Origin: a virus
Strand: one strand, 5' to 3'
DNA: 64,000 nt
IMG/VR virus record: IMGVR_UViG_3300047558_000137
Location: 246,859-310,858 of that record
Positions 37,552 through 61,214 of the stretch are shown here, one piece after another. The translations under genes and the position numbers were made by a program. The number at the start of each line of letters is the position of its first letter. Within the stretch, counting starts at the first letter, position 1. The notes below the pieces were generated by a model that was given only the letters and a program-made list of their open reading frames with translations, ran no database searches and was not told where the DNA came from.

Positions 37552-39469
<1,918 letters not shown>

Positions 39470-40692: not shown

Positions 40693-41585
40693 AGTTGTTT
40701 TAATATAGCCGCTGCTATATCCTTTGAGTTAAAATTGCTTGAGCAAGGTGTGTTGCCCTTGCTACATACTAACTGTCTCACTGGACGAGCCTGTACGTCA
40801 TTGCACCCGCGACAATCTTCTAGTGTCTGTACCACTGTGGTATTGTATCCCAGCTGGTTGTTACGATAAGGCAAGATTACTTCGGGTCGCAGATGTGTTA
40901 GCAGTGCAACTATGTGCGTCGAACTGGCACTTGCAGCCCAATAAGGACCTGAATCAATGCCAACAAATGCTTTTGCACCGTCACATAGGACCTTTAACTG
41001 TTGATCATTGAACTTAGTACGTGCATCAACAAATAGTGGATGGTCTTCGATAAACAGGTCTGTTTCGCCGCCCACTGTTACAATCTTAAAGTCTGTGCGA
41101 GTTTCAAACAGTTGTGCAAAAACTTCAAACCAAATGTCGGCATTAATGTTTTTTGCAGTCCAATGCCAGTTACGCATATGAATAACAATATAACTATCTA
41201 GTTCATTCTGGTAAGCAAAGTTCAATACCTTAGTGGAATCTTCTTCTGTGGGGAATAATTCTGTTGATTGATCTAGACCTAGTTGCCCAAATGCACGATA
41301 GAAGTAGTTGTCTACATAGTGTTCTGTTGGATTAAGTTCATATGCATCGTCGAGATTAATATAAACATCATATCTATTGTTTACTGCTGGTATTTGGTCT
41401 ACAGGAAAGACGTTACGTATGTGCGGATTATTTCTATAAATGCCCGCAAAGTCTGTGGCAACGTCAATATTGGCATTGCTACCATAACGTGCCTTTAGTT
41501 CTCTAACTACCCCAGTGGTCATTACTACATCGCCAATTGCAGCACGGCGTTGTAATAGTATGTTAATTGACTTTTCTAATTTCAT
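40689..41585 (-). CDS. glycosyltransferase family 9-like (heptosyltransferase-like)
   Basis: FVGIDSGPYWAASASSTHIVALL matches GT9 GxDSGPxHLAAA motif; N-terminal ILLQRRAAIGDVVMTT matches the GT9 LxxxRxGDxVxxxP start. Confidence 0.6.
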   Translation of the reverse strand: MKLEKSINILLQRRAAIGDVVMTTGVVRELKARYGSNANIDVATDFAGIYRNNPHIRNVFPVDQIPAVNNRYDVYINLDDAYELNPTEHYVDNYFYRAFGQLGLDQSTELFPTEEDSTKVLNFAYQNELDSYIVIHMRNWHWTAKNINADIWFEVFAQLFETRTDFKIVTVGGETDLFIEDHPLFVDARTKFNDQQLKVLCDGAKAFVGIDSGPYWAASASSTHIVALLTHLRPEVILPYRNNQLGYNTTVVQTLEDCRGCNDVQARPVRQLVCSKGNTPCSSNFNSKDIAAAILKQL

Positions 41586-42790
41586 CGTTCTATTCTAATA
41601 TTAGGGAAGTAGGTCATGAAACGATCATTTAGATTATTTCTTGTTTTAAGTATCTTAGATTTAATTTCACGATAGAAATTCCATGCCAATGGTATAAACA
41701 ATACCTGTTCATCTTCTGCAAGACGTTCAAGATAGTTAATACTTACAACAGGAATGTCTGCGCCCGGGCATAAAGTTCCTTGTTTTAAAGGATTATCGTC
41801 TACAACTGCATCTAACTCAATACCACTTGCATTAATTACAGTCATGCCCTTAGCTGCCGCACCATATCCCACAATCTTATACCCTTGTGATCTATAGTCT
41901 GCTACCGTATCACGTAGATCCCCAATAAGAGTTGCAACATCCGATGCCCAACCTCTATAGGTATTGGGATCAGTTAATCCTGCAGCCGCTTCCATTGCTA
42001 GAATGTTTTCAACTCTTTGTGTATTCTTAGGCCGTCTAGCTAGAATAAAGATATAACTGGTGCCATGTATGGGTGTTTTAACTACATCAATTAAGTGTAG
42101 ACCTGCACGTTCTGCTAATGCCTGCATACTTGTGGCGTTGTAGAAACTAATGTGTTCGTGATAGATAGTATCAAACTCACTATTGACAACCATATCGGCT
42201 TGACTTGTGCTGATAAAAATCATTCCGGTATTGGTCATACGCTGTCTAGCGGCCAATAACCAATTTAAGGGATTTGGATTGTGTGCAAAACTGTTCTGTG
42301 CGGTAATAACATCAAACTGTGTATCAAAGCCTTGATCAGTTGGCCAGAAGTCGCATATAACTTGATGTCCTTTTGCTACTGTGTCTGCGTGTAGATTCTT
42401 TGCAGGATCCACACCATATGTTTTAAACCCTAAACGTTTAAATGCATCAAGTTGACTACCATCATTGCAGCCAATATCTAGTACTGTAGTGGGCCAATGA
42501 TCGAACTGTTCACGTACAAAACGTGCATACCAATCCATGTATTCAACATAAGTCCGACTTGTGCCACTAACATAGAGATAGTGGGTATAGATTAGTGCAG
42601 GATCTACTGCGTGTGTTAGCTGTAGATGATTGCAATCGTTGCAACGGTTAATGGCCAACGGATAACGTGGCTCAACTGCTGTGGTAGACCTGAAGTTATT
42701 GGCCAATGGCTGCTCACCTAGATCTAATGTAGGTGTTAAATCTGTGCTGCCACAGGCCACACAACTGGTAATAGGATCGCAATTATTCAT
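41582..42790 (-). CDS. SAM-dependent C-methyltransferase, TylCIII/NDP-hexose 3-C-methyltransferase-like, with N-terminal Zn ribbon
   Basis: N-terminal CVACGS...CNDCNH zinc-binding domain, class I SAM motif VLDIGCNDGSQL, length 402 aa as in sugar C-methyltransferases. Confidence 0.6.
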   Translation of the reverse strand: MNNCDPITSCVACGSTDLTPTLDLGEQPLANNFRSTTAVEPRYPLAINRCNDCNHLQLTHAVDPALIYTHYLYVSGTSRTYVEYMDWYARFVREQFDHWPTTVLDIGCNDGSQLDAFKRLGFKTYGVDPAKNLHADTVAKGHQVICDFWPTDQGFDTQFDVITAQNSFAHNPNPLNWLLAARQRMTNTGMIFISTSQADMVVNSEFDTIYHEHISFYNATSMQALAERAGLHLIDVVKTPIHGTSYIFILARRPKNTQRVENILAMEAAAGLTDPNTYRGWASDVATLIGDLRDTVADYRSQGYKIVGYGAAAKGMTVINASGIELDAVVDDNPLKQGTLCPGADIPVVSINYLERLAEDEQVLFIPLAWNFYREIKSKILKTRNNLNDRFMTYFPNIRIER

Positions 42791-43506
42791 TAGTTCTTAA
42801 TCTGTACGCCGTTTGGTGCAATATGTCCTTCGACCCCAAGCAAAGGTTCGTTGTGTACGTGTTCTTGTGGTAAGAATTTATACAATACATGTTCAATGTC
42901 TACATACCCGCCATTAGCAAGGCGTTCAGCAAAGAAGTTAAAGCTATCTAGGTAAACTTGTATAACTTCATCGGTCATTGTAGTAGGCCAAGACCATAGA
43001 CGTGCCATGTATTGCAACGGTACTTGTGTAACTTCAGGCGGGAATTGACTAGGTTGTGCAGGGCCAATAACAATCTTATCTTTAATATCATCACGTTCGT
43101 AAAGATCTAATTTAAAATCATCATTGAGCAGATATCTTCCTGATACTTTGTGTACACGGTCAAATCCATTTAACATGTTTTCTTGTTGTAAGATACCAAG
43201 TACGCGACTAAAGCACATGATCTCTGTACCGTTCTTAACTACGTCCCAGTTGTCATTGTCGTATAGAGCTTGTACATCTTCATCTGTACTGCAATCAATG
43301 AACACATGGCATACTTCTTTAAGTTGATTGGCTTGTAAATCCTTAATAGGTGTGCCGCAGACTTCCATAACAACAATCAACGCATCGGGCACACGTTGTT
43401 TAATTGTGGCGATAGTGTTTAGTGTTTGGTCTAAACGCTCACGTGGACTGTATACTCCAAATTTACTGTTAATTGCGCTGGTTACGATAAATGCATGTTT
43501 AGTCAT
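42790..43506 (-). CDS. hypothetical protein in sugar island
   Basis: 238-aa ORF coupled to flanking sugar genes. Confidence 0.45.
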   Translation of the reverse strand: MTKHAFIVTSAINSKFGVYSPRERLDQTLNTIATIKQRVPDALIVVMEVCGTPIKDLQANQLKEVCHVFIDCSTDEDVQALYDNDNWDVVKNGTEIMCFSRVLGILQQENMLNGFDRVHKVSGRYLLNDDFKLDLYERDDIKDKIVIGPAQPSQFPPEVTQVPLQYMARLWSWPTTMTDEVIQVYLDSFNFFAERLANGGYVDIEHVLYKFLPQEHVHNEPLLGVEGHIAPNGVQIKN

Positions 43507-43519
43507 AATATATTCTACT

Positions 43520-44704
43520 TTAATAATCTCTGTTAGTCAATTCAATTTTAACTCGTTTACGATACGTGGCCAATGCACTACCAATAACTTGGTGCATGTC
43601 GTAGTACATGTATTCGCCTAAGCGGCCGCCGAAGATCACGTTGGGCTCTTTTTCTGTTAAACTACGGTATTGTGCAAACATTTCCATATCCTCTGGTGTC
43701 TTAACAGGATAATAAGGAACGTCATCTTGTGTTGCAGTGCGGCTAAACTCTCTACCAATTACCGTTTTTCCATCAGCTACACGACGTTCAGGATGAAAGT
43801 GTCGATGTTCTACTTCACGTGTCCACTTTACATCCGTGTCGGGATAATTTAATACAGCGACACCCTGGTAGTCGTTGGTATTTTCTGTACGGTATTCAAA
43901 ATCTAGTGTGCGCCAATTTAGTTGGCCATAGCAATAATCATAGAAAGCATCAATTGGGCCAGTGTAGACCACCAACTTTTCACGTGCCAGATGTTTTACA
44001 TCTTCCCAACAAGTGTTTAAGTGTACTGTAACGTTGTCATGTGCCAACATCTTTTCAAATATTGGTGTGTAACCGTCAACTGGTATGCCTTGATATCTAT
44101 TGTTGTTAGGATAGTAGTCTGTTCGGTAGTCTGTATAAACAGGTAAACGTTTAGCAACACTAGCAGGTAGTTCTTTAGGATCAGTTTCCCACTGCTTTTG
44201 TGTGTATCCCTGCACAAACGCATGATACAATTTAGAACCTAGCAAACTTAGTGCTTGCTCTTCAAAGTTCTTAGGATCATCATAGTGTACTTTTTGTTCT
44301 TCTAACCAACGAGCTGCGTCTGCAGGGTTAAACTCATTACCAGTAAACTTGTTTATTGTATCCAAGTTAATAGGCATGGGGTAAACTACACCTTGATGAC
44401 TTGTTTTGCAGATATGTCGGTAGTTGTTAAACTCAGTAAATTGATTTACATAGTCCCAGATTTCTTTATTATCTGTATGAAATATATGAGAACCATAACG
44501 ATGTACATTTATACCAGTCTCCGGATCAAACTCAGTATAACAGTTGCCACCAATATGATTGCGACTATCAATCACAGCAACCTGAAAGCCATCTCGGCTA
44601 GCCTGTTCAGCAACTACGCTACCAAAGAAGCCGGCACCAACTACAACTAAATCAACGTTTTTAAACATTACTTGCTTAACCAGCGTGTGTTTTCTAGGGT
44701 CCAC
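43520..44704 (-). CDS. glf: UDP-galactopyranose mutase
   Basis: N-terminal FAD fold VVGAGFFGSVVAEQ, then NHIGGNCYTE...YGSHIFHTDNKEIWDYVN...QGYTQKQW...YQGIPVDGYT...IFGGRLGEYMYYDMHQVIGSAL, colinear with E. coli Glf. Confidence 0.9.
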   Translation of the reverse strand: MDPRKHTLVKQVMFKNVDLVVVGAGFFGSVVAEQASRDGFQVAVIDSRNHIGGNCYTEFDPETGINVHRYGSHIFHTDNKEIWDYVNQFTEFNNYRHICKTSHQGVVYPMPINLDTINKFTGNEFNPADAARWLEEQKVHYDDPKNFEEQALSLLGSKLYHAFVQGYTQKQWETDPKELPASVAKRLPVYTDYRTDYYPNNNRYQGIPVDGYTPIFEKMLAHDNVTVHLNTCWEDVKHLAREKLVVYTGPIDAFYDYCYGQLNWRTLDFEYRTENTNDYQGVAVLNYPDTDVKWTREVEHRHFHPERRVADGKTVIGREFSRTATQDDVPYYPVKTPEDMEMFAQYRSLTEKEPNVIFGGRLGEYMYYDMHQVIGSALATYRKRVKIELTNRDY

Positions 44705-45708
44705 TTAGTCATTTCAGCAATGCGTTCGCTAAGTTTAATACGTGGTTCCCAACCTAGATCTTTAAGTAGGCCACCGTCTAGTGCGTAACGCAGGTCATGT
44801 CCCGGACGACTACTATGAAAATCTACCATTTCGTAGTTTAACTCTCGACCTTGCGCTTCCGCAATCCACTTAGCAAGTGTTAGATTATCAACCTCTTCTG
44901 TGCCTACTAGGTTGAACTTAGGGCAGTGTGCGTGTCCGTAATCGCCTGTGTGTTTATAGTCCTTAGGCAAGTTTTGCAAAATAAACATTAGACCTTCAGC
45001 TACATCCCTTGCATGTATGTACATTCGTGTACCAGCTTCTGTTTTCTCTGGGTTAGAGTGAATAAAAACTTTCTCACCATCACGGGCACGTTGGATGCAC
45101 ATAGGAATAAACTTCTCGGGATGCTGACGTTCGCCAAACACGTTCATAGTGTGTGTAACTACAATAGGCATCTTATAAGTGTTTTCGTACGCCACACAAA
45201 ATTCTTCGGCTGCTGCCTTGCTCGCGCTATACGGGTTGGTGCTGTTGTACCGATCATACTCTTTATAAGATACCCCGGGTGGAGCAACCCCAAAAATTTC
45301 GTCTGTTGAAAAGTAAACGAAACGTTCGAGGTTAGGTAAATTTTTTCTAGCATAATCTAACATGTTAACAGTACCAACGGTATTGTCTAACACAAACTCC
45401 ATAGGGTAAGTAATTGAACGATCTACATGCGATGATGCAGCTAGATGCAAAACAATGTCTACTGGACCAATATCTTTAACGATCATTTCGTTTAGTTCTG
45501 CCTTGATATCATGGAATATGATACGCATACGCTTGGCTATTACTGCAGGGTCATGTTCCTTTAACATGTCGTGTAATCGATTTAGATTACCACTAATGTC
45601 AAGTCTATCAAGACTAACGATATTCCAGTCTGTACTAAGTAGGATTTTATCTATAACGTGGTGGGCAATAAAACCTGCGCCACCAGTTATCAAAACTGTT
45701 TTGCTCAT
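44668..45708 (-). CDS. NDP-sugar 4,6-dehydratase (RmlB-like) / NAD-dependent epimerase-dehydratase family
   Basis: Rossmann TGGAGFIAHHV, catalytic YSASKAAAE (YxxxK), PEKFIPMCIQRARDGEKVFI matches RmlB PEKLIP...GKPLPIYG block. Confidence 0.75.
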   Translation of the reverse strand: MSKTVLITGGAGFIAHHVIDKILLSTDWNIVSLDRLDISGNLNRLHDMLKEHDPAVIAKRMRIIFHDIKAELNEMIVKDIGPVDIVLHLAASSHVDRSITYPMEFVLDNTVGTVNMLDYARKNLPNLERFVYFSTDEIFGVAPPGVSYKEYDRYNSTNPYSASKAAAEEFCVAYENTYKMPIVVTHTMNVFGERQHPEKFIPMCIQRARDGEKVFIHSNPEKTEAGTRMYIHARDVAEGLMFILQNLPKDYKHTGDYGHAHCPKFNLVGTEEVDNLTLAKWIAEAQGRELNYEMVDFHSSRPGHDLRYALDGGLLKDLGWEPRIKLSERIAEMTKWTLENTRWLSK

Positions 45709-45734
45709 TGAAACTCCGAGATTATTGAATAATA

Positions 45735-46586
45735 CTATTTATTATACGGGTATGGCGGTAAGAAATCAATTATCTTCTCACCAGAATTGGCCAATATAAA
45801 GTCTGTGTACTGCCGACAGCTGGCAGGAAAGTAGTTGTCTAGGTCAACTATCTTATATGTAGCATCAGCTGAACGATTCCATTCTTTGCCTTCGGCAATA
45901 CTTTTATCTAAATCAATCTGTGCCAGGAACTCAGGTGTATTGACTTCTGTGTGACTAAAACTCTGTGCTTTATCACGTAGGTAGTCGTTGTCGCCCATGT
46001 AACCAAAATGCCATCCAGCATGTTCAATGACTTCGCAACCTTGGTTCTTGTGTTGATATTCGGCACCAAAGAAGTTAAAACGGAAATTACGCAATTGGTT
46101 AGGTGTTATTTCTTTAAACACACTGCCCCTGCCGGCCATTGCCCAAACATCATAACGTGCTGGCTCAAAGCGCATATAGTTAAATTTAAAGTTGCTTAAT
46201 GTCATACGCATGGCAAAGATTATTTGATCTGATTGGCGTATGTATTCAACTGCTGCCGGACGAGGTATTTCATCAACATCAGATACGATCATAATGTCAT
46301 CATCTTCTGCATCAGTTAGGCAATGCAATATTGCATTACGTTGTGCTTCTTCGTTTACCCATGGATTTGGGTCTCCGGGTAAGTTGACAGGCAAATACCT
46401 AATCTTATCTGCATAAGGTTTAAATCTATCATAATGTTGTGGAAATAACGGAGTGCGAGCACGATTGGTAAATGTACTAGTGCCTTCAACAATGACAAAC
46501 ACATCCACTGTGTTGTATAATTCTTTAAGGCGTATTTCTAATAGATCGAGTTCATTGTAAAATGTAAAGCAGTCAAATATACGCAT
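45735..46586 (-). CDS. glycosyltransferase family 17-like (beta-1,4-N-acetylglucosaminyltransferase-like)
   Basis: N-terminus MRIFDCFTFYNELDLLEIRLKELYNTVDVFVIVEG matches the conserved GT17 start IxDCFxFxNELDxLExRL. Confidence 0.55.
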   Translation of the reverse strand: MRIFDCFTFYNELDLLEIRLKELYNTVDVFVIVEGTSTFTNRARTPLFPQHYDRFKPYADKIRYLPVNLPGDPNPWVNEEAQRNAILHCLTDAEDDDIMIVSDVDEIPRPAAVEYIRQSDQIIFAMRMTLSNFKFNYMRFEPARYDVWAMAGRGSVFKEITPNQLRNFRFNFFGAEYQHKNQGCEVIEHAGWHFGYMGDNDYLRDKAQSFSHTEVNTPEFLAQIDLDKSIAEGKEWNRSADATYKIVDLDNYFPASCRQYTDFILANSGEKIIDFLPPYPYNK

Positions 46587-49028: not shown

Positions 49029-49985
49029 TTATGCTTTTAAAATCCCATTAATTAAACCAGGGGAAAATACATCTTCGTACTTAGTGTACAAAGGCTCAAC
49101 TATATCTCTCATTTTTGCAATTTCGGAATCGCTAAATTTGTAATAGCTAACCCCCAACTCATCATGGCGAGCTTGGTTAACTGCGTAGTCCTCTGCTTCT
49201 GCAACACTTTCTTCGCGTTCACGAACCGCAGCAACACGGGCAGCTTGTCTTACAAATTCTTGATCTTCAGAATCTAAACTATTCCAGAAATCTTTAGAAA
49301 TTAAGATGCTTGTTAAGTACATGCTATGTTTAGTATCAACAATGTGCTTTTGAACAGCGGTATTAGCTTCGTATTCGTAACGTGGTAATGTAGTTTCTAC
49401 TGTGTAACCATTCTTTTGTAATACTTCGCTCTTGGCATCATAGTTACGTGCGCTGATAGCAAGTGGTTCGCATCCAAAAATCTTAGCTGTATCTACCATT
49501 ACTGGGTTTGGTGCAGTAACTAGTTTAATTCCCTTTAAGTCCTCAAAGGAATTAATCTTTTTATCTGACGCTAGGCATCTATACCCGCCACTATATGTAA
49601 ATGCTAGACCATGAACAGGAGTGTTTTTTTGTAGACTATCTAATAGTCCTCGACCAATTTCTCCGTCTAGAACACGAGTTGCATGATCGTGGTCTTTAAA
49701 CAAATATGGCATTTCTAATGCAAAAAAGTCCGGTGCATTCCATACACCAATAAGGTTAGTTTGCATCTGGCTCATTTCTACGTCATTATTTTGTATCAAT
49801 GACAATGGCTCGTGTTTTACGCCATTTTTAAATTTATCTGAATATTCTTCAAGTGTGTACACTTCCACATTGATTCTGTCTCCGGTTAAGCGGGCAATTT
49901 CTTGAGAAAATGCTTTAGCAGTACGGACAAACAAGTGGATAGGTTCGTGATATAATACCCAACGTATTGTGTGATTCTTTTTCAT
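49029..49985 (-). CDS. TRAP-transporter DctP-like solute-binding protein homolog (no signal peptide)
   Basis: VHGLAFTYSGGYRCLASDKKINSFEDLKGIKLVTAPNPVMVDTAKIFGCEPLAIS colinear with DctP GLAFWDNGFK...LKMRIQSS...ALGA.P region; N-terminus lacks secretion signal. Confidence 0.6.
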   Translation of the reverse strand: MKKNHTIRWVLYHEPIHLFVRTAKAFSQEIARLTGDRINVEVYTLEEYSDKFKNGVKHEPLSLIQNNDVEMSQMQTNLIGVWNAPDFFALEMPYLFKDHDHATRVLDGEIGRGLLDSLQKNTPVHGLAFTYSGGYRCLASDKKINSFEDLKGIKLVTAPNPVMVDTAKIFGCEPLAISARNYDAKSEVLQKNGYTVETTLPRYEYEANTAVQKHIVDTKHSMYLTSILISKDFWNSLDSEDQEFVRQAARVAAVREREESVAEAEDYAVNQARHDELGVSYYKFSDSEIAKMRDIVEPLYTKYEDVFSPGLINGILKA

Positions 49986-50508: not shown

Positions 50509-51135
50509 TTATGTAAGGGTTGTTAATACATATGGCCAACATAAAGGGCCGGGTTTCGTAACAGGACCGGTCAATCGTTGATGTGCTGTATACCAACTTT
50601 TATGTATTAATTTTGCATCATCAAAGTTTATATTGAAGTTACCATAATGGCATATCTGAGAATAAAGTAATTCATCTAGATCTTCAGTGTATAAATCTGC
50701 TGTATCAAGTAAAAGTCCAGAGCAATTGCCTACATATAATTCTGCTTGTTGACGTTCATACCGCACTGTATTGAAGTATAAGTTTCGATCTACATGTGTG
50801 AATTTTTTATATAAGTCTAATGTCACCAGTGGATCTGTTGGATATAAGAAATAGTTAACATTGCTATCAAATTGCCCTGGTCTATTTTCCCACCCCGGGT
50901 CAAAATTGGTATGAGCAAATTTAATCTGTTCATTTAAGACCTGTCTATACTTAAACTCATAACTAAACCAATTTTTACAGTTACGCTCTGCAGGATAAAC
51001 ATTTGACAGTATATAGTCAACTTTATCCGCAACAGGGCCACGATCAAAAAGAAGAAAACCGGGGTCGAGTAGTAGCAACCACCTTAAATGATTACCACAC
51101 CCGCCCCGGCAACTATGCACAATAGCACGATGCAT
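50509..51135 (-). CDS. hypothetical protein
   Basis: 208-aa ORF, stop/start overlap with phosphoesterase. Confidence 0.45.
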   Translation of the reverse strand: MHRAIVHSCRGGCGNHLRWLLLLDPGFLLFDRGPVADKVDYILSNVYPAERNCKNWFSYEFKYRQVLNEQIKFAHTNFDPGWENRPGQFDSNVNYFLYPTDPLVTLDLYKKFTHVDRNLYFNTVRYERQQAELYVGNCSGLLLDTADLYTEDLDELLYSQICHYGNFNINFDDAKLIHKSWYTAHQRLTGPVTKPGPLCWPYVLTTLT

Positions 51136-51740
51136 TACATTGTAGGCCCATTGCCATTACGCATACCAACTGTACCACCTTCTGCTGTAATGCGCTTGAT
51201 GACATCTTCAAACAGGATGGGAGCGAAGTCCGGGGTCTGTTCTACACACACGCAGTGGTAGCGGACATCGTTCTCATTACTGTACAAGACTTCACCGGTT
51301 TTGACATTATATCCACGCATCTTCTTTACACGATTAGTATGCAAGTGTCCGTGAATGTTCGTGCCAAAGCGGCCCAACGAAGCTTCGTGTACCGGAATAT
51401 GACTAAGAATCATTCCGTTCATTACATGGTATGCACGTAGTTCACGAAAGTATTCACGATATTCTTCATCACGAAAGATATCATGGTTGCCACGGATCAA
51501 GACTTTATCACCGTTTAGGCGGGCAAGCGTTTTCAAAGCCCGTCTATTGATAACAACATCGCCTAGGTGATAGACTTTGTCGTTGGGCCTTACACGGTCA
51601 TTCCAGGCCTTGACCATGGCTTCATCCATTTCATCCGGATCTGTCCACGGACGTATTTTTGTAACACCGTCCGCTTCAGTAAAGCGACATACACCGGCAT
51701 GGCCAAAGTGCGTATCGCTAACTAAGAATACTGCTGGCAT
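51135..51740 (-). CDS. calcineurin-like metallophosphoesterase
   Basis: DTHFGH, GDVV, GNHD, ...GHLH motifs in canonical order. Confidence 0.8.
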   Translation of the reverse strand: MPAVFLVSDTHFGHAGVCRFTEADGVTKIRPWTDPDEMDEAMVKAWNDRVRPNDKVYHLGDVVINRRALKTLARLNGDKVLIRGNHDIFRDEEYREYFRELRAYHVMNGMILSHIPVHEASLGRFGTNIHGHLHTNRVKKMRGYNVKTGEVLYSNENDVRYHCVCVEQTPDFAPILFEDVIKRITAEGGTVGMRNGNGPTM

Positions 51741-53108: not shown

Positions 53109-53291
53109 TTAACAATGTTCTTTAAACAACGCCTTGCGCTTTTCTTGGCCCAATGTGTTATCTAAAACATCTTTGCATCTATTCATCATACCAAAACATA
53201 AAATCAATAACTCATTCTGGTCATCGCACATCATAATCTGCTGTTCGATGGGTTGCATAAGTTCTTTTAATTTTTGATCAATAGGATGCAT
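53109..53291 (-). CDS. small hypothetical protein (track ORF 53109-53366 runs into tRNA-Cys; shortened to internal Met)
   Basis: MHPIDQKLKELMQPIEQQIMMCDDQNELLILCFGMMNRCKDVLDNTLGQEKRKALFKEHC. Confidence 0.3.
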   Translation of the reverse strand: MHPIDQKLKELMQPIEQQIMMCDDQNELLILCFGMMNRCKDVLDNTLGQEKRKALFKEHC

Positions 53292-53296
53292 AAACT

Positions 53297-53372
53297 TGGA
53301 GCACGGTGTAGGAGTTGAACCTACCTCATACCGGGTTTGCAATCCAGCGCATAACCGCTCTGCCAACCGTGC
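53297..53372 (-). tRNA. tRNA-Cys(GCA)
   Basis: GCACGGT...D-loop AGCGGTTA identical to E. coli tRNA-Cys, loop TTGCAAA, T-arm GTAGG-TTCAACT-CCTAC, CCA encoded. Confidence 0.75.
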
Positions 53373-53504
53373 ATAATTCTTTGTTTAGTGGGCTACCCCT
53401 CATGTTCTCTTACTCTTGGGTAACGTGACCAGATCGCATAGCACCGAAGAACAATCCGTACTATACTAGGCTCCCTCGCTAAAGGCATCACTAAACAAAA
53501 ACTT

Positions 53505-53596
53505 ATATGTAAACACACTACCACGGCGTTATACTGCTGTATCGCAAGCAATACTACCATGTCTACCCATTGTGCATGTAATGTGTTTGCATATAA
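53505..53596 (-). repeat. copy A of about 90-nt conserved hairpin element (arms ATGTAAACACACT / AATGTGTTTGCATAT)
   Basis: Second copy at 56129-56207 abuts the 3' end of tRNA-Lys; arms are inverted repeats of each other, inner region partly conserved (AATACTACC / AGTATTGCTACC). Confidence 0.55.
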
Positions 53597-53597
53597 G

Positions 53598-53670
53598 TGG
53601 AGGACTGAGATTACATCTCTCCCAATAGCACCTCGAGCATTATACTGCACCTTGCGAGCACAGCTTCTCT
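53598..53670 (-). pseudogene. degenerate tRNA-like remnant (3' end CTCAGTCCTCCA resembles tRNA-Lys 3' end) attached to repeat copy A
   Basis: No canonical T-loop; same junction with the hairpin element as the intact tRNA-Lys copy. Confidence 0.25.
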
Positions 53671-53928
53671 CGACATCCACGGTAACCCTTGCGGTATTAC
53701 TGTCTGCTATCAGCATCGCCGTTTTTAACGTCAGGCAGTAGACGTGTCGCTATCAGCTACTCTGTACCTTATTTCCCGTTGACCTTTAGAGCCATTCACA
53801 GTCGCTAAACTGTTACGAAACTTCTAGTACAAACCAATTTCACCTTGCGAGTTACGTTGGACTTGATTCACTTGCGTGTCAAGCATTAGATGCTTTTCAC
53901 TGATAACCGTGTCAGACTTTGCGTTTTT

Positions 53929-54000
53929 CGATGTTAGCTGGGATCGAACCAGCAGTCTATTTCTTAGAAGGAAATCGGCCTACCATTAGCCTATAACAAC
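53929..54000 (-). tRNA. tRNA-Arg(TCT), no encoded CCA, one acceptor mismatch
   Basis: GTTGTTA-TA-GGCTAATGGTAGGCC-G-ATTTC-CTTCTAA-GAAAT...GCTGGTTCGATCCCAGC-TAACATC. Confidence 0.6.
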
Positions 54001-54735
54001 CTACTATGATGAGCTGACACAGTTGATCCATACACTTTTGGTATACAGAATACAACTCACCACGTACCTTTCCTCTCGCGGAGTAATCAGTCGTTTTTTG
54101 CGATCAATGTCTACGCTAACACGTAACCACCAACCACTCAAACTGCACTACAACCCTTAGGAGCGACCCCTCGGATCATAACGCTACCCTTTCTCATACT
54201 AACTGACAAGTTGGTTTTGCTGTGAAGTCGGCACCACCCGTTACTTTCCACACACCCGAGTTCCCTTTGATGCGATCTCTGGCTCGACGATATGCGTTCT
54301 TCCCACAGCACTTGCTTCATTGTTACATCCACCGGTCTTATCAGTGAACGCTACCTCACGGTAGTGAGCAGGCTTGCTTAAATGAACTATTGCTAGCGGA
54401 GTTGCGTAGGCTTACCTCCTTTGGCTGTGTCACCACAGTTATTCTTTGTCTAGCCGGGCGAACCGACTCTACAGGACATTAAGCTGCCCTTAAATTCTTA
54501 TACAACTGCACACTCACAGGAATTGAACCTGTCTACCTGGCGACCATTTGTTCATCCAGGCTGCAATCCGCTACATCTGCGTGGCCTACGCATTTGTGTG
54601 CATGTGTATAAGAACTTCTTATACTTTAACTTTTTAAAGAACATTTTCGTCAGTTATTGCTAACTGTCTAAGTATCTATTGTTACATAAAAAACATTTAT
54701 TGTCAACTGTTTTTTAGATAAAAATAAAAATATTT

Positions 54736-54810
54736 TGGTCCGGCGTGCAGGAATCGAACCCACATTCGCGAGGTAGAAGCTCGCTGTATTATCCATTATA
54801 CTAACGCCAG
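54736..54810 (-). tRNA. tRNA-Arg(TCT), second copy; paralogous to tRNA-Arg(ACG) at 58222
   Basis: CTGGCGT-TA-GTATAATGGATAATAC-A-GCGAG-CTTCTAC-CTCGC...GTGGGTTCGATTCCTGC-ACGCCGG-A-CCA. Confidence 0.75.
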
Positions 54811-56128: not shown

Positions 56129-56207
56129 ATATGTAAACACACTGACTCTCCAGTATTGCTACCTTCACCGAGTTTGACGTCTTAGGTCGTGCAATGTGTT
56201 TGCATAT
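56129..56207 (-). repeat. copy B of the about 90-nt hairpin element, immediately 3' of tRNA-Lys(TTT)
   Basis: ATGTAAACACACT ... AATGTGTTTGCATAT, same arms as copy A. Confidence 0.55.
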
Positions 56208-56454: not shown

Positions 56455-57078
56455 TTACATGTTTTTAAATTGAATTGTTCGCCAAGACTCAGGGTCTGGC
56501 TGCTCGTTTTCATCGTATGTCCAACCTAGTGCTTTCATCATCTTGTGCTTAACACGCAAGTTAGGAATACGAGTCTTTTCAGTGTCCTGAAAGCCCATCA
56601 TAATCCCAACTTCCGCTACTGCACCACTACGACACAAGCCAGCCATACAGTGTACTACAACACCCATTTTATTGTCAAGTGCATGTTGCAAGAGTCGCAC
56701 AATTTCTTGTGCTTGCTCATCGCTAATTTTACACTCTTCTGGGAAGTTATCCCGATCCTCAACATCCAGAAACTCAAACCTATGTGTTTCTTTAAATTTG
56801 TGTACTGGTGTGGGCCACCAGCTGGTAGCTGTATCCATGATTTGGATAAGCATACTATTCTCCCCGCAGTCATGATGAAAGCGAGCGGGAATATCGGCAG
56901 CAGCCACATTTTCGATAAAAGGCATCATACATCCTTCATTACTTGATAGAGAACAAACATTATAACACATACCAGAATTAGTACACTCATTGATGTTCTC
57001 CTTTTTGTTGGTGCCCCAGGTCGGACTCGAACCGACACGCCTCACAGCAATGGTTTCTAAGACCATCGTGGCTACCAT
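56455..57078 (-). CDS. dual-specificity (Cys-based) protein/RNA phosphatase
   Basis: Active-site VVHCMAGLCRSGAV (HCx5R P-loop) with upstream Asp; 207 aa. Confidence 0.75.
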   Translation of the reverse strand: MVATMVLETIAVRRVGSSPTWGTNKKENINECTNSGMCYNVCSLSSNEGCMMPFIENVAAADIPARFHHDCGENSMLIQIMDTATSWWPTPVHKFKETHRFEFLDVEDRDNFPEECKISDEQAQEIVRLLQHALDNKMGVVVHCMAGLCRSGAVAEVGIMMGFQDTEKTRIPNLRVKHKMMKALGWTYDENEQPDPESWRTIQFKNM

Positions 57079-58479: not shown

Positions 58480-58556
58480 TGGTCGGCCCTAGAGGATTCG
58501 AACCTCTAACCAACGATTTCGAAGACCGCTACTCTATCCAGTTGAGCCAAGGGCCG
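58480..58556 (-). tRNA. tRNA-Arg(TCG) (tentative)
   Basis: CGGCCCT-TG-GCTCAACTGGATAGAGT-A-GCGGT-CTTCGAA-ATCGT...AGAGGTTCGAATCCTCT-AGGGCCG-A-CCA. Confidence 0.65.
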
Positions 58557-59706
58557 AGAATGTTACATCCAATGTGTGCTTCTTCATAATAGCCTGAAAG
58601 TCTTCAAACTTATCAGCTTTTGGCGCACAGTATCCGCACAAACACGATGATTTCTTACATTGTATAACTGGCTTAATTTCATTAGAAAGCAAATTTAATT
58701 GATCATCTAATATAGCCTGATAGTTTGACAAATTACCAATGGGTTTTGTGGTGCCATTGAAGTTCATACGACAGTCTTTGTTGTAATATACATTACCGTT
58801 AACTTGTTTGATATACAAAAAATACCAATTAACACTACAGTACCAATCAAAGAATCCTGCTTCGGGCATAAATGCCACAGGATGTTTTAAATCTTGATTG
58901 CCACATAACTTGCGGCCACCACAACAACTACGACCAACATTGCCCATCCCAACTGTTTCAGACTCAACTGCATCCATTACATCGCCAATAATGTATCTAC
59001 TGCGAGCAACAGTATTAGATTGATAATACTCTTTAAAGAATACAAATTGTTCTTTAGTATATTGCCATCCTGGTCCCGGGTAATCGTTAGCTTTGATTAC
59101 ATACTTAATATTTTGTTGTTTACAAAACTCTACTGCCGATTGACTAATATCCCATTTATCAGGATCATTATGCATAACAAAAACAATCTTTTGTCTACGA
59201 TCAATTGATTTATTGTACAAAATATTATCAAATATCTGCCGACGCTGTTTAGGTAATGCTGTACTATGAAAACTAATTGTAAATTCATCAATTAAATTTG
59301 CGACTTGTTTCCATAACACTGGGCCTGCTACTGCATTGGTTGTGCATGTCACTGTCAGTGGCCAACGATCTGCATACTTCTTGTGCCTAACACGAACTTG
59401 TTCTAATATTTCAACAATGTTGGGATGAAAAATGCTTTCGCCGCCATAGACATTTAAGATAACCATACGTTGCCACGCAGGCTTTAGTTGCATGTATCGA
59501 TCAGCATACTCATACATAAAGTCGATTGTACGCAAACAATCTTCTAACGGTGGGTGCTGAGTGCTGTTATCATGTCCACCTGTTTCAATATCATTTAAAC
59601 AATAGTCGCAATCTAAATTGCACTTCATTGTTAATTCCCAATCTAATAGAAAGGTGGGTCTATTAGACGGGTCAATGGCCGGTTCAATTGAAATGATTTT
59701 TTTCAT
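58534..59706 (-). CDS. radical SAM domain protein (with additional C-terminal Cys clusters)
   Basis: CNLDCDYC (CxxxCxxC) near N-terminus; further CCGGRKLC and CKKSSCLCGYC clusters at C-terminus suggest auxiliary Fe-S (SPASM-like) sites. Confidence 0.7.
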   Translation of the reverse strand: MKKIISIEPAIDPSNRPTFLLDWELTMKCNLDCDYCLNDIETGGHDNSTQHPPLEDCLRTIDFMYEYADRYMQLKPAWQRMVILNVYGGESIFHPNIVEILEQVRVRHKKYADRWPLTVTCTTNAVAGPVLWKQVANLIDEFTISFHSTALPKQRRQIFDNILYNKSIDRRQKIVFVMHNDPDKWDISQSAVEFCKQQNIKYVIKANDYPGPGWQYTKEQFVFFKEYYQSNTVARSRYIIGDVMDAVESETVGMGNVGRSCCGGRKLCGNQDLKHPVAFMPEAGFFDWYCSVNWYFLYIKQVNGNVYYNKDCRMNFNGTTKPIGNLSNYQAILDDQLNLLSNEIKPVIQCKKSSCLCGYCAPKADKFEDFQAIMKKHTLDVTFSALGSTG

Positions 59707-59900: not shown

Positions 59901-60287
59901 TTAACGTTTTAACCCTCTGGCTGTTCTTCCTTTGCCTTTATTTTTAGCAACAAACGTATCTGTTTGACTATGACAATTAGGACATAACAGTCTTAAATTC
60001 TTTGGCTTATCATTTCCTGCATTACCATCTATGTGATCTAATTGTAACACAAGAGGTCTATTTTTGTGAGTCCCAGTGTTGCCACACTCAATGCATTTAT
60101 ACCCATGAAGATGTGTTAAACATCTTATAAGAGTTCTTCTAGTAGAAATTTCTCCCTTTAAAAACTTTGGTAATGTTTCTGTTTTAAACTGAAATTGTTG
60201 TTGGCAAGTATTATTGCAAAACTTATTTGTGTGATTTCGTTTTACTATATTCTCTTTGCCGCAGCATAAACAATTGAAATTATTCAT
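59901..60287 (-). CDS. HNH endonuclease (homing-endonuclease-like), paralog 1
   Basis: N-terminal Cys-rich zinc finger (CLCCGKE...CNNTCQ), C-terminal LQLDHIDGNAGNDKPKNLRLLCPNCHSQT HNH motif. Confidence 0.75.
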   Translation of the reverse strand: MNNFNCLCCGKENIVKRNHTNKFCNNTCQQQFQFKTETLPKFLKGEISTRRTLIRCLTHLHGYKCIECGNTGTHKNRPLVLQLDHIDGNAGNDKPKNLRLLCPNCHSQTDTFVAKNKGKGRTARGLKR

Positions 60288-60827: not shown

Positions 60828-61214
60828 CTAATACCACGGAAGTCCTCTGCTGCCTCTTCCGTTACCTTTATTTTTTGCTTTATGTGTTGGAGTTTTAGCA
60901 TGACAATTAGGACACAATAGCCGCAAATTTTTGGGCCGGTTATCTCCTGCATTGCCATCAATGTGATCTAACTCAAGTGGTATAGGCTCACCTAGCCACT
61001 CAGTGTTATCACAACACATGCATTTCCATCCATGGATATCAACCATATGGGCTTTCATCCATCCACGGTTTACCATCTTACCATCTAAGAAATTTTGTCG
61101 CCTATCTTTCTTTTGCCCTTCTTTAGAACAAGATACACTACAATATGTCCCAGTGGAACTTCCTATTTTAAACTTAAATTCGGTATTACAATTTTTACAA
61201 GTTGCTATTGCCAT
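60828..61214 (-). CDS. HNH endonuclease, paralog 2
   Basis: ATCKNCNTEFKF...CSVSC zinc finger plus LELDHIDGNAGDNRPKNLRLLCPNCHAKT; about 45 percent identical to paralog 1 in the HNH core. Confidence 0.75.
   Translation of the reverse strand: MAIATCKNCNTEFKFKIGSSTGTYCSVSCSKEGQKKDRRQNFLDGKMVNRGWMKAHMVDIHGWKCMCCDNTEWLGEPIPLELDHIDGNAGDNRPKNLRLLCPNCHAKTPTHKAKNKGNGRGSRGLPWY

Follow-up and report, generated by a model that had tools for sequence, protein, structure and literature searches.

A full-length GOLLD RNA with a tRNA in its linker inside a viral tRNA island, preceded by a candidate tRNA-like module

The window analysed here, a stretch of 64,000 nucleotides taken from a viral genome record, contains a tRNA island in which 27 tRNAs lie on the same strand between 51.8 and 63.2 kb. 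Between two canonical members of this island, a tRNA-Cys(GCA) and a free-standing tRNA-Arg(TCT) with encoded CCA, positions 53,373 to 54,735 hold no credible open reading frame (ORF), and the minus strand is rich in structured RNA (Table 1). The longest ORFs within 53,380-54,740 have 107, 64 and 60 amino acids and all overlap RNA structure supported by covariation, and protein coding was rejected because the five longest ORFs matched no PHROGs or Pfam family. A preliminary description of this DNA, made from the letters of the sequence, had likewise noted the lack of a credible ORF, and every element listed in it is present within one or two bases of the position given there. On the minus strand the features would form one transcription unit, which would begin with a sigma-70-type promoter and a short conserved leader, continue with a tRNA-like module that has a long closing helix and then with an 889-nt GOLLD RNA (54490-53602), and pass through two long-stem hairpin modules before reaching tRNA-Cys. 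In this proposed unit the GOLLD RNA comprises two domains, 5' and 3', the second of which has a tRNA fused into its linker.

Table 1. Features of the stretch between tRNA-Cys and tRNA-Arg and of its borders (positions are those of the window)
Feature	Position	Strand	Basis
Flanking canonical tRNA-Cys(GCA)	53297..53372	minus	ARAGORN, Rfam
Second 3' module, 18-bp helix closing a multi-branch core	53373..53506	minus	inverted repeat I4, fold
Long hairpin with 21-bp closing stem, directly after the GOLLD 3' end	53501..53598	minus	inverted repeat I1, folds
GOLLD 3' domain, the universally conserved part, with the pseudoknot that comes right after the linker	53602..54063	minus	Rfam RF02032
Linker (J13/15) tRNA, anticodon UCU (Arg)	53929..54000	minus	ARAGORN, Rfam tRNA 60.5 bits
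GOLLD 5' domain, outside the Rfam model, with hairpin loop motif ACGGGTGGTGCCG at 54241-54229	54064..54490	minus	BLAST, RNAalifold
146-nt tRNA-like module, 13-bp outer helix running into a 7-bp acceptor-like stem	54485..54630	minus	fold, alignment A4, model R1
Conserved motif GTTCTTTAA in the leader, some 30 nt downstream from the -10 box	54634..54642	minus	nine loci
Predicted sigma-70-type promoter, TTGACA, 17-nt spacer, AACAAT, with TG upstream and an A-rich tract before	54678..54706	minus	motif search, nine-locus comparison
Flanking canonical free-standing tRNA-Arg(TCT), CCA encoded	54736..54810	minus	ARAGORN, Rfam

The stretch holds a full-length GOLLD RNA, a giant non-coding RNA already known from phages. 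GOLLD RNAs, reportedly described by Weinberg et al. in 2009, are among the largest structured RNAs of bacteria and phages. The Rfam model of the family (RF02032) matches the minus strand with 191.7 bits, above the gathering score of 150 (E = 1.8e-52), and the match covers model positions 1-416 of 416 without truncation, which establishes the membership of the conserved 3' domain in the family; all of the 16 comparison loci tested are GOLLD as well, with 197-223 bits. Members of the family reach about 800 nt or more and have a separate, structured and less conserved 5' domain, and the total of about 890 nt, the two-domain layout and the pseudoknot after the linker here are like those of RF02032 and of env-38, the GOLLD RNA solved by cryo-EM. 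GOLLD RNAs are encoded by phages near tRNA islands and their linker sometimes holds a tRNA (PMC12286853), and the locus is alike in all these respects: its homologues sit on viral contigs from IMG/VR that reach 424 kb, it lies in the tRNA island, and its embedded tRNA falls into the unpaired columns of the J13/15 linker in the model alignment. The preliminary description had suspected a structured RNA, which was right in general, and the Rfam cmscan search that it proposed settled the question in favour of GOLLD, a family missing from its list of candidates.

Upstream of the Rfam match, a 5' domain of about 430 nt is conserved in 20 viral contigs. Of the 111 pairs predicted in it by RNAalifold, 82 show double-sided (compensatory) changes; 97.2% of the cells in the alignment are paired against 38-43% in slid controls, in which only 16-25 pairs are found. 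The domain is thus both conserved and covarying. Its motif ACGGGTGGTGCCG is also present in the 5' region of env-38; in an nhmmer search of the A2 profile against that RNA, only ACGGGTGGTGCCG (E = 0.036) and CAAAACCAACTT (E = 0.32) were matched. The attempt to align the 5' domain with env-38 by sequence failed, the shared part being the 13-nt motif only, and the 5' domain here belongs to a subtype that is not alignable with env-38 by sequence beyond ACGGGTGGTGCCG.

Regarding its relatives, local BLAST found 65-77% identity over about 860 nt in some 25 viral loci, and dozens of independent contigs from viruses and metagenomes share these conserved 860 nt. Among cultured phages there was no close DNA relative, the sole match being a short N-terminal match of a protein. 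A genome scan for prophage copies gave 14 matches, 13 of them due to chance and the remaining one a genuine GOLLD, whose contig was binned with an Acidobacteriota metagenome-assembled genome.

The tRNA in the linker is conserved, and its fold is under selection. It is found at the same linker position in about 20 of 24 relatives and is flanked by the conserved motifs GTAGGTT and AAAAACGCAAAGTCTG, the last three bases of the former being positions 1-3 of the tRNA itself. The cloverleaf covaries, with the D, anticodon and T stems 96-100% paired and double-sided changes at 18 of 21 pairs. It resembles an elongator tRNA in its cloverleaf, its 7-nt anticodon loop with U33 and the purine at position 37; it lacks the fully paired 7-bp acceptor stem and the lineage-stable anticodon identity of such a tRNA. 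The copy in the window has no encoded CCA and carries a U2-U71 mismatch, as read from the sequence and the Rfam alignment; the tRNA-Arg(TCT) with an acceptor mismatch and no CCA that the preliminary description had pointed out is real, being recognised by ARAGORN and Rfam. Across the family the three outer acceptor pairs are poorly paired, with 2:71 unpaired in 13 of 21 sequences, and both the missing CCA and the weak acceptor end are common to the linker tRNAs of related loci. Since these oddities are shared by related loci and accompanied by compensatory changes, they do not point to decay.

What varies among the linker tRNAs is the anticodon. The copy in the window has an identity of 0.59 to the free tRNA-Arg(TCT) of the same window versus 0.89 to the linker tRNA-Lys(TTT) of locus L003. 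The same holds for each of 20 linker tRNAs compared, whose closer match is a linker tRNA of a different anticodon (0.69-0.99); for the 17 with a free tRNA of the same anticodon available, such a match reaches 0.57-0.67 at best. Across 55 distinct linker sequences the entropy is 1.2-1.3 bits in the anticodon columns and 0.66, 0.55 and 0.13 bits at positions 33, 37 and 38. TCT/TTT, TGG/TGA/TTG and TTT/TTA occur on near-identical bodies, and the variants include TGA where the body lacks the long variable arm of a typical tRNA-Ser, TTA, which reads ochre, and 8-nt loops; the anticodons of this proposed single lineage comprise Lys, Asn, Arg, Thr, Gln, Pro, nonsense and 4-nt types. Most of them are standard sense anticodons, and most copies keep a 7-nt loop. 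A strict rule that linker tRNAs read ANN codons, suggested by the first 20 loci, was rejected, as it applies to about two thirds of a larger sample: the ANN-reading majority is formed by Lys, Asn and Arg anticodons, and TTG, TGA, TGG, TTC, ATG and TTA fall outside it. The arrangement of a tRNA in the linker is itself known, and the drifting anticodon may be new; adaptive switching could also account for the variety in place of drift.

Comparable arrangements occur in mycobacteria, where GOLLD likewise has a tRNA or pseudo-tRNA in the single-stranded linker of the 3' domain and belongs to a large tRNA array of phage origin (PMC6582537); the embedded tRNA there is attributed to Morgado et al. 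2020, as cited in PMC12990946. Unlike those, the present RNA and its relatives come from environmental viral contigs and not from Mycobacterium, and in place of tRNA-Phe or a pseudo-tRNA the linker holds a tRNA-Arg(UCU), from a lineage in which Lys, Asn and Arg anticodons prevail.

Directly upstream of GOLLD lies the tRNA-like module, whose interior comprises a D-like hairpin, a stem of 3-4 bp capped by an NYGGA loop, a variable hairpin and, at 54532-54516, a canonical T-arm. This T-arm, ACAGGTTCAATTCCTGT, had been taken for an orphan without a foldable 5' half; it is present, one base off the earlier position, and it does have a partner half, made of a GCACAC/GTGTGC acceptor-like stem and the D-like hairpin. 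The minimum free energy fold of the leader together with the tRNA-like segment has z = -4.55, and in alignment A4 of ten loci 26 of 40 pairs show double-sided changes, with 96.7% of cells paired against 30-54% in slid controls. With a covariance model of the module (R1), the window reaches 144 bits and loci outside the training set 63-79 bits, whereas ARAGORN rejects the element at default settings and picks it up at lowered thresholds only. No Rfam family matched the module when the 211-nt sub-region holding it was searched at E <= 10. It is found again in phage tRNA arrays, both those that contain GOLLD and those that do not, near the start of tRNA-array or GOLLD transcription units and downstream of promoter and leader where those are seen. 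The module may be a new and apparently undescribed leader element; it could serve as a processing or stability element, or be a tRNA mimic in its own right, for which its recurrence in phage tRNA arrays and the lack of an Rfam match make it a candidate.

The predicted promoter has 10 of 12 consensus matches, which in this single sequence alone is indistinguishable from chance. In nine loci, TTGACA-17-TACAAT stands at the same relative position, and comparison of these sequences shows the predicted promoter to be conserved across loci; in the window this form occurs three times versus 0.09 expected, one copy (63270-63242) preceding tRNA-Glu, the tRNA with which the island begins. Transcription is predicted to start near 54671. 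The leader motif GTTCTTTAA keeps a constant distance from the promoter in the nine loci; as a motif enriched in the window it was rejected (2 matches versus 1.0 expected). A plus-strand copy of GTTCTTTAA at 53117, as read from the sequence, lies at the end of a small ORF. Two features set the RNA apart from env-38: its own predicted promoter, which is conserved among loci, and, as in a minority of its relatives, a tRNA-like module immediately before it.

Beyond GOLLD, the fold of the whole 3' flank has z = -4.76, and together with the value for the leader segment this places the local hairpins mentioned in the preliminary description above chance. The long hairpin directly after GOLLD belongs to a recurring family of spacer hairpins, its arms being found again after tRNA-Lys (56207-56129) and in several loci, and it may be a processing site. 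As a terminator it was rejected, since the U-run that follows is part of the next helix and the second copy has no U-run; a search of the minus strand gave no intrinsic terminator. The second 3' module had no homologues among the comparison loci. Taken together, the tRNA-like module and the long hairpins would be putative processing signals of RNase P, RNase Z or RNase III type, which free the GOLLD RNA.

As for what the stretch is, the preliminary description was right about structured RNA and went astray in the identities that it named. The idea of an RNase P RNA, a tmRNA, a group I intron or an intron-interrupted tRNA drew on the tRNA-like pieces and on a loose likeness of GGAAAGTAACGGGTGGTGCC to the P4 region of RNase P RNA. 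These words do stand at 54230-54249 in minus-strand sense, where they are part of the conserved hairpin loop of the GOLLD 5' domain; no RNase P RNA, tmRNA or group I intron was matched in Rfam at E <= 10 in the 1.6-kb region or the 211-nt sub-region, and ARAGORN found nothing in tmRNA mode, lowered thresholds included, and in intron mode gave low-threshold artefacts only, such as a wrong-strand 'tRNA-Pyl' with a 177-nt intron. These identities were accordingly rejected, and the chance that one of them holds is practically nil. Equally negligible is the fallback that the stretch consists of functionless, decaying tRNA duplicates and chance hairpins. The setting in a tRNA island, the tRNA with a mismatch and no CCA, and the element rejected by ARAGORN at default would fit it, but it is refuted by the full-length GOLLD match, by the conservation of some 860 nt in so many independent contigs, and by compensatory changes, which exceed those of shuffled and slid controls by a wide margin in the 5' domain as well as in the linker tRNA and the tRNA-like module; the latter two are maintained in this way across many loci. 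For the module there is a further possibility, namely that it is a phage Y RNA, a tRNA-mimicking partner which tethers the Ro60/Rsr protein to a nuclease. Y RNAs occur in phages, and bacterial and phage examples such as YrlA and Yrn1 are tRNA mimics that have a long terminal helix, conserve the D and T arms and lack a free CCA end (PMC4201824); the module shares this end-to-end architecture, and its arm order resembles that of Deinococcus radiodurans Yrn1 as described there. However, YrlA has the order T arm, loop-closed acceptor and D arm, with a GNCGAAN0-1G motif in the Ro60-binding strand (PMC4201824), while the module has the normal arm order of a tRNA and lacks the motif in its outer helix; moreover, no Rfam Y RNA or YrlA family matched it at E <= 10, and no TROVE/Ro60 protein was found among the 20 ORFs of the window scanned. 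A Y RNA identity is thus not supported, and we consider it improbable.

With respect to function, env-38 was found by cryo-EM to form a protein-free closed 14-mer nanocage, with the disordered linker pointing inward (Kretsch et al. 2025; PMC12286853). By analogy, the RNA described here would self-assemble without protein into a closed 14-mer cage, and each cage would hold 14 covalently tethered tRNA domains inside. The tethered tRNA may then be cargo or bait and not an ordinary decoder, because its acceptor end is fused to conserved GOLLD sequence, poorly paired and without CCA, because its anticodon varies among near-identical bodies and is in some cases nonsense-reading or 4-nt, and because the cloverleaf and the U33, A37, A38 frame of the loop are retained all the same. 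During infection the cage would store or shield a tRNA-shaped module, or else offer it to host factors that bind tRNA, anticodon nucleases among them; in one possible version the 14 tethered tRNAs would be decoys for these nucleases or for other tRNA-binding factors. Phage tRNAs do counter tRNA-cleaving defences (PMC10264068, PMC11464382). That the whole stretch is a minus-strand non-coding RNA transcription unit inside a phage tRNA island, with a tRNA tethered as cargo or bait in a GOLLD cage, seems to us rather probable; the joint proposal that the linker tRNA is one anticodon-varying lineage acting as bait or cargo and that the 146-nt module is a new RNA family as well is put forward only tentatively.

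The main competitor is that the embedded tRNA is a normal nested gene, excised by RNase P and 3' processing, supplied with CCA and decoding AGA codons, with GOLLD as a precursor for storage or timed release, or as a mere shared transcript; an 'inhibited storage' idea for the tRNA embedded in J13/15 has been published (PMC12990946). The element scores well as a tRNA (60.5 bits), its cloverleaf covaries with U33, A37 and A38 conserved, and most linker tRNAs have standard sense anticodons. Bacteria can also add CCA post-transcriptionally, and the kept U33/A37/A38, the mostly 7-nt loop and the ANN-reading majority, which count against the cargo reading, fit a working and releasable tRNA too. On the other hand, the window already has a canonical free tRNA-Arg(TCT) that is only distantly similar, the outer acceptor pairs of the linker family are weak, near-identical bodies bear anticodons for different amino acids, and excision would split the GOLLD 3' domain in two; in addition, the pseudo-tRNA inside a mycobacterial GOLLD was not detected as a separately expressed RNA (PMC6582537). 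We regard the nested gene as unlikely. What speaks against the preferred reading of a caged cargo or bait is that the cage is extrapolated from env-38, whose 5' domain shares only the 13-nt motif, and that a 14-mer is not assured here because GOLLD 3' domains assemble with varying stoichiometry (PMC12990946). The retention of the tRNA shape while the anticodon changes argues that a tRNA-shaped object inside the cage is what matters, and the comparative data on linker tRNAs offer a testable handle on the function of GOLLD.

The locus provides a complete example of GOLLD, with a predicted promoter conserved across loci, covariation support in both domains and a tRNA in the linker, and in annotation practice such stretches in phage tRNA islands should be tested for GOLLD before they are called tRNA pseudogenes. 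ROOL is likewise a large RNA of phages and prophages which is found near tRNA islands and forms RNA-only nanocages (PMC12286853); it is unrelated in sequence and fold to the GOLLD described here, and Rfam gave no ROOL match in the window. HNH endonuclease genes lie near the locus, as they do near GOLLD in the mycobacterial arrays (PMC6582537).

The stretch between tRNA-Cys and the free-standing tRNA-Arg(TCT) is identified with very high confidence as a GOLLD RNA, a large non-coding RNA of phages. A tRNA island of 27 genes, every one on the minus strand, occupies 51.8-63.2 kb of the window, and the Rfam scan of the whole window at gathering thresholds returned 26 tRNA matches and one GOLLD match, which spans the complete model (see table). 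In the Rfam alignment the conserved 3'-domain helices are all present, including the pseudoknot after the linker, and another tRNA-Arg(TCT), at 53929-54000, lies inside the match at the model's unpaired linker columns. The preliminary description had seen no credible ORF in this stretch, and indeed the longest ones, of 107, 64 and 60 aa, have no match in PHROGs or Pfam. It was also right in suggesting a structured RNA, but not in the identities it named, since RNase P, tmRNA and group I intron gave no Rfam match in the stretch even at E <= 10, ARAGORN called no tmRNA there, and an intron-containing tRNA was called by ARAGORN only as a low-threshold artefact.

Features of the GOLLD locus, the tRNA island and neighbouring genes (window positions)
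Feature	Position	Strand	Remarks
Cpn60/GroEL chaperonin	37552-39171	minus	
Sugar-nucleotide and glycosylation gene block	41582-46586	minus	C-methyltransferase, UDP-galactopyranose mutase, NAD-dependent epimerase/dehydratase, family 17 glycosyltransferase
DctP-like solute-binding protein	49029-49985		
Metallophosphoesterase	51135-51740	minus	within or beside tRNA island
tRNA-Cys	53297-53372	minus	3' border of stretch
Second 3' module	53373-53506	minus	18-bp helix closing multi-branch core
First 3' hairpin module	53501-53598	minus	directly after GOLLD 3' end
GOLLD RNA (RF02032), 3' domain	54063-53602	minus	191.7 bits against gathering score 150, E = 1.8e-52, model 1-416 of 416
GOLLD 5' domain	54490-54064	minus	conserved covarying fold upstream of Rfam match
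Promoter (predicted)	54706-54678	minus	TTGACA, 17 nt, AACAAT with TG; position and sequence kept in nine loci
tRNA-Arg(TCT), free-standing	54736-54810	minus	other border of stretch
SAM-dependent methyltransferase, 184 aa	54831-55385	plus	between tRNA-Arg(TCT) and tRNA-Leu, strand opposite to tRNAs
Second copy of hairpin arms	56129-56207	minus	directly after tRNA-Lys(ttt)
Dual-specificity phosphatase-like protein	56455-57078	minus	within or beside tRNA island
Radical SAM protein	58534-59706	minus	within or beside tRNA island
HNH endonucleases, two, 128 aa each	59901-60287, 60828-61214	minus	interspersed among tRNAs
RF-1 domain protein, 128 aa	62725-63111	minus	Pfam E = 7.7e-14; within tRNA island

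A degenerate pattern built on 3'-domain motifs, run over a collection of viral contigs, yielded 32 loci; all 16 tested by Rfam have a full-length GOLLD match (197-223 bits). Some 25 of the 32 can be aligned to roughly 54445-53580 of the window with 65-77% identity, a span about double that of the Rfam match, and the conserved block of the conservation profile runs from about 54506 to 53590. The window RNA is a further member of the known GOLLD family, in a well-populated environmental phage subtype. Representative bacterial genomes have almost none of this subtype: one of 14 hits there is a real GOLLD. No close cultured relative was found.

The Rfam model is limited to the conserved 3' half of GOLLD, and the additional length corresponds to a 5' domain with its own conserved fold. 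Alignment of window 54512-54050 with 20 loci gave a consensus of 111 pairs, 82 of them with double-sided changes and pairing kept (16-25 pairs in slid controls), and the share of paired cells is 97.2%, compared with 79.3% for shuffles and 38-43% for slid partners. The words once likened to the P4 region of RNase P, present at 54230-54249, make up a hairpin of 3 bp whose loop, of GUGGUG type, is invariant; this hairpin falls within a block that ranks among the best conserved of the 5' domain. The motif ACGGGTGGTGCCG is common to the window's 5' domain and env-38, a GOLLD solved by cryo-EM, but beyond it the two 5' domains do not align in sequence (nhmmer E = 0.036), consistent with the published lower conservation of the 5' region (PMC12286853). 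An invariant CAAAACCAACTT stands at 54208-54219 (minus strand), just after the GGUGGUGC loop of the 5' domain; it occurs also in env-38 at positions 478-495, where the linker of the 3' domain begins and not in the 5' domain (nhmmer E = 0.32); this may reflect chance or an interaction partner that has moved.

An embedded tRNA in the J13/15 linker of the 3' domain is already known (PMC12990946; PMC12286853; PMC6582537). About 20 of 24 close relatives have a tRNA at the same GOLLD position, bordered by conserved GTAGGTT, its final three bases forming positions 1-3 of the tRNA, and by conserved AAAAANGCAAAGTCTG. None of the linker tRNAs compared encodes CCA, their outer three acceptor pairs are weak, and 13 of the 21 sequences lack pairing at 2:71; the missing CCA and acceptor mismatch taken earlier as signs of decay are therefore common to related loci. 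The cloverleaf covaries: pairing in the D, anticodon and T stems is at 96-100%, and double-sided changes occur in 18 of 21 cloverleaf pairs, amounting to 97 cells where shuffles have 31 and slid controls 8-19. To judge from this covariation, the rest of the cloverleaf, beyond the outer acceptor pairs, is under selection.

All 20 linker tRNAs have their closer match among linker tRNAs of different anticodon (identity 0.69-0.99), while the best same-anticodon free tRNA reaches only 0.57-0.67 for the 17 having one to compare; that of the window is 0.89 identical to the linker tRNA-Lys(TTT) of viral locus L003 and only 0.59 to the window's free tRNA-Arg(TCT). With a metagenome scan the sample grew to 85 loci in which the GOLLD core motif was confirmed; these have 55 different linker sequences. 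Their anticodons are mostly GTT, TTT and TCT, more rarely TTG, TGA, TGG, TGT, GAT, TTC, ATG, ATT and the nonsense-reading TTA, and four sequences have 4-nt anticodons; a strict ANN-codon preference, suggested by fewer loci, applies in this larger sample to about two thirds. Entropy is 1.2-1.3 bits across the three anticodon columns, on a level with covarying stem positions, positions 33, 37 and 38 have 0.66, 0.55 and 0.13 bits, and near-identical bodies bear TCT/TTT, TGG/TGA/TTG or TTT/TTA. In two metagenome loci (L166 and L175) the TTA anticodon, which would read the UAA stop codon, sits on bodies close to Lys(TTT) linker tRNAs. The literature surveyed, to which Morgado et al. 2020 did not belong, held no description of a single-lineage linker tRNA with drifting anticodon, and this lineage behaviour is possibly new.

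The identity of the RNA as GOLLD is secure, and its mechanism rests on published work. env-38 assembles protein-free into a closed D7 14-mer of 380 Å, a cage with 5' domains as caps, 3' domains as rings and the disordered linker inside (PMC12286853); by analogy, a cage of the window RNA would hold up to 14 covalently attached tRNA domains inside. The main rival is that a functional tRNA is stored in GOLLD and then released, and published work has suggested "inhibited storage" as a role of the embedded tRNA (PMC12990946). We consider release of a functional tRNA rather unlikely. Because the acceptor is fused and poorly paired, CCA is lacking, the anticodon varies between near-identical bodies, and the loop frame and L-shape determinants are kept, the linker tRNA would be tRNA-shaped cargo or bait and not a decoder. 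As one candidate role, such bait would be a decoy for host defences that target tRNAs, such defences being a known driver of tRNA evolution in phages (PMC10264068, PMC11464382). Our confidence in a cage with tethered tRNA cargo or bait as the function is moderate to low.

Ahead of GOLLD lies the T-arm sequence (54516-54532) that had been described as an orphan. At lowered thresholds only, ARAGORN reports 95 nt at 54507-54601 as tRNA-like; the acceptor stem and T-arm are good, while the anticodon region is aberrant. Folding of 54672-54470 (MFE, z = -4.55) supplies the 5' half supposed to be missing: a 13-bp outer helix (AAGUUCUUAUACA/UGUAUAAGAAUUU) leads through a small internal loop to a 7-bp acceptor-like stem, which closes a junction of D-like hairpin, short stem-loop, variable hairpin and T-arm. 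A pattern scan with the T-arm and 3' acceptor strand gave 14 viral loci; the module is followed by GOLLD in the window, L014, L028, L033 and L037, and directly by ordinary tRNAs in L034-L036, L038-L041 and L043. The consensus of ten distinct copies has 40 pairs, 26 with double-sided changes (3-7 in slid controls), and the fold pairs 96.7% of cells, whereas slid controls pair 30-54%. A covariance model from these copies scores 144 bits on the window (54485-54630, single copy) and found copies outside the training set in L027 (79 bits), L004 (77 bits) and L006 (63 bits), the last downstream of that locus's GOLLD; 7 of 45 further GOLLD loci carry the module. An Rfam search of it gave no match. 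Its architecture is similar to that of Y RNAs; however, the permuted arm order and GNCGAA motif of YrlA (PMC4201824) are both absent and no Ro60/TROVE protein occurs in the 20 window ORFs scanned, hence the likeness was set aside. The module is apparently an independent, undescribed element sometimes linked to GOLLD, and as a tRNA-like leader it is possibly new.

Promoter-like sites in the window alone are not above chance frequency. Each of the nine loci that share the site upstream of GOLLD has an A-rich tract before it and GTTCTTTAA some 30 nt after it, and this promoter form is found three times in the window where 0.09 copies are expected. From this conservation and over-representation, GOLLD seems to be transcribed from a promoter of its own; the predicted start is near 54671. 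One of the other copies, with the extended form TTGACAATAAA...TACAAT, lies at 63270-63242 (minus strand) immediately before tRNA-Glu, with which the island begins, and suggests that the tRNA array and GOLLD share a promoter class.

On the other side, the 230 nt between GOLLD and tRNA-Cys form two modules in the predicted fold (z = -4.76), each with a long closing helix. The first belongs to a recurring long-hairpin family with the arms (C)TTATATGCAAACACA / TGTGTTTACATATAAG, which return after tRNA-Lys(ttt) and occur as short exact matches in several other phage tRNA arrays (L001, L007, L016, L003, L018, L033); in L001 they are the closing helix of its tRNA-like element. The second module is conserved in none of the comparison loci, and a very weak ARAGORN tRNA-like call (53415-53495, only at -ps70) falls within it. 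A terminator role for the hairpin of the first module was rejected as unsupported. An RNase III-type processing role would be plausible, and the recurring long hairpins may be candidate processing sites.

Of the sizeable plus-strand genes scanned in the island, the methyltransferase gene alone has a Pfam match. The RF-1 domain protein resembles ArfB-type ribosome-rescue peptidyl-tRNA hydrolases in size and domain. As for the HNH endonuclease genes, such genes are reported beside GOLLD in mycobacterial tRNA arrays (PMC6582537), a neighbourhood those arrays have in common with the window.
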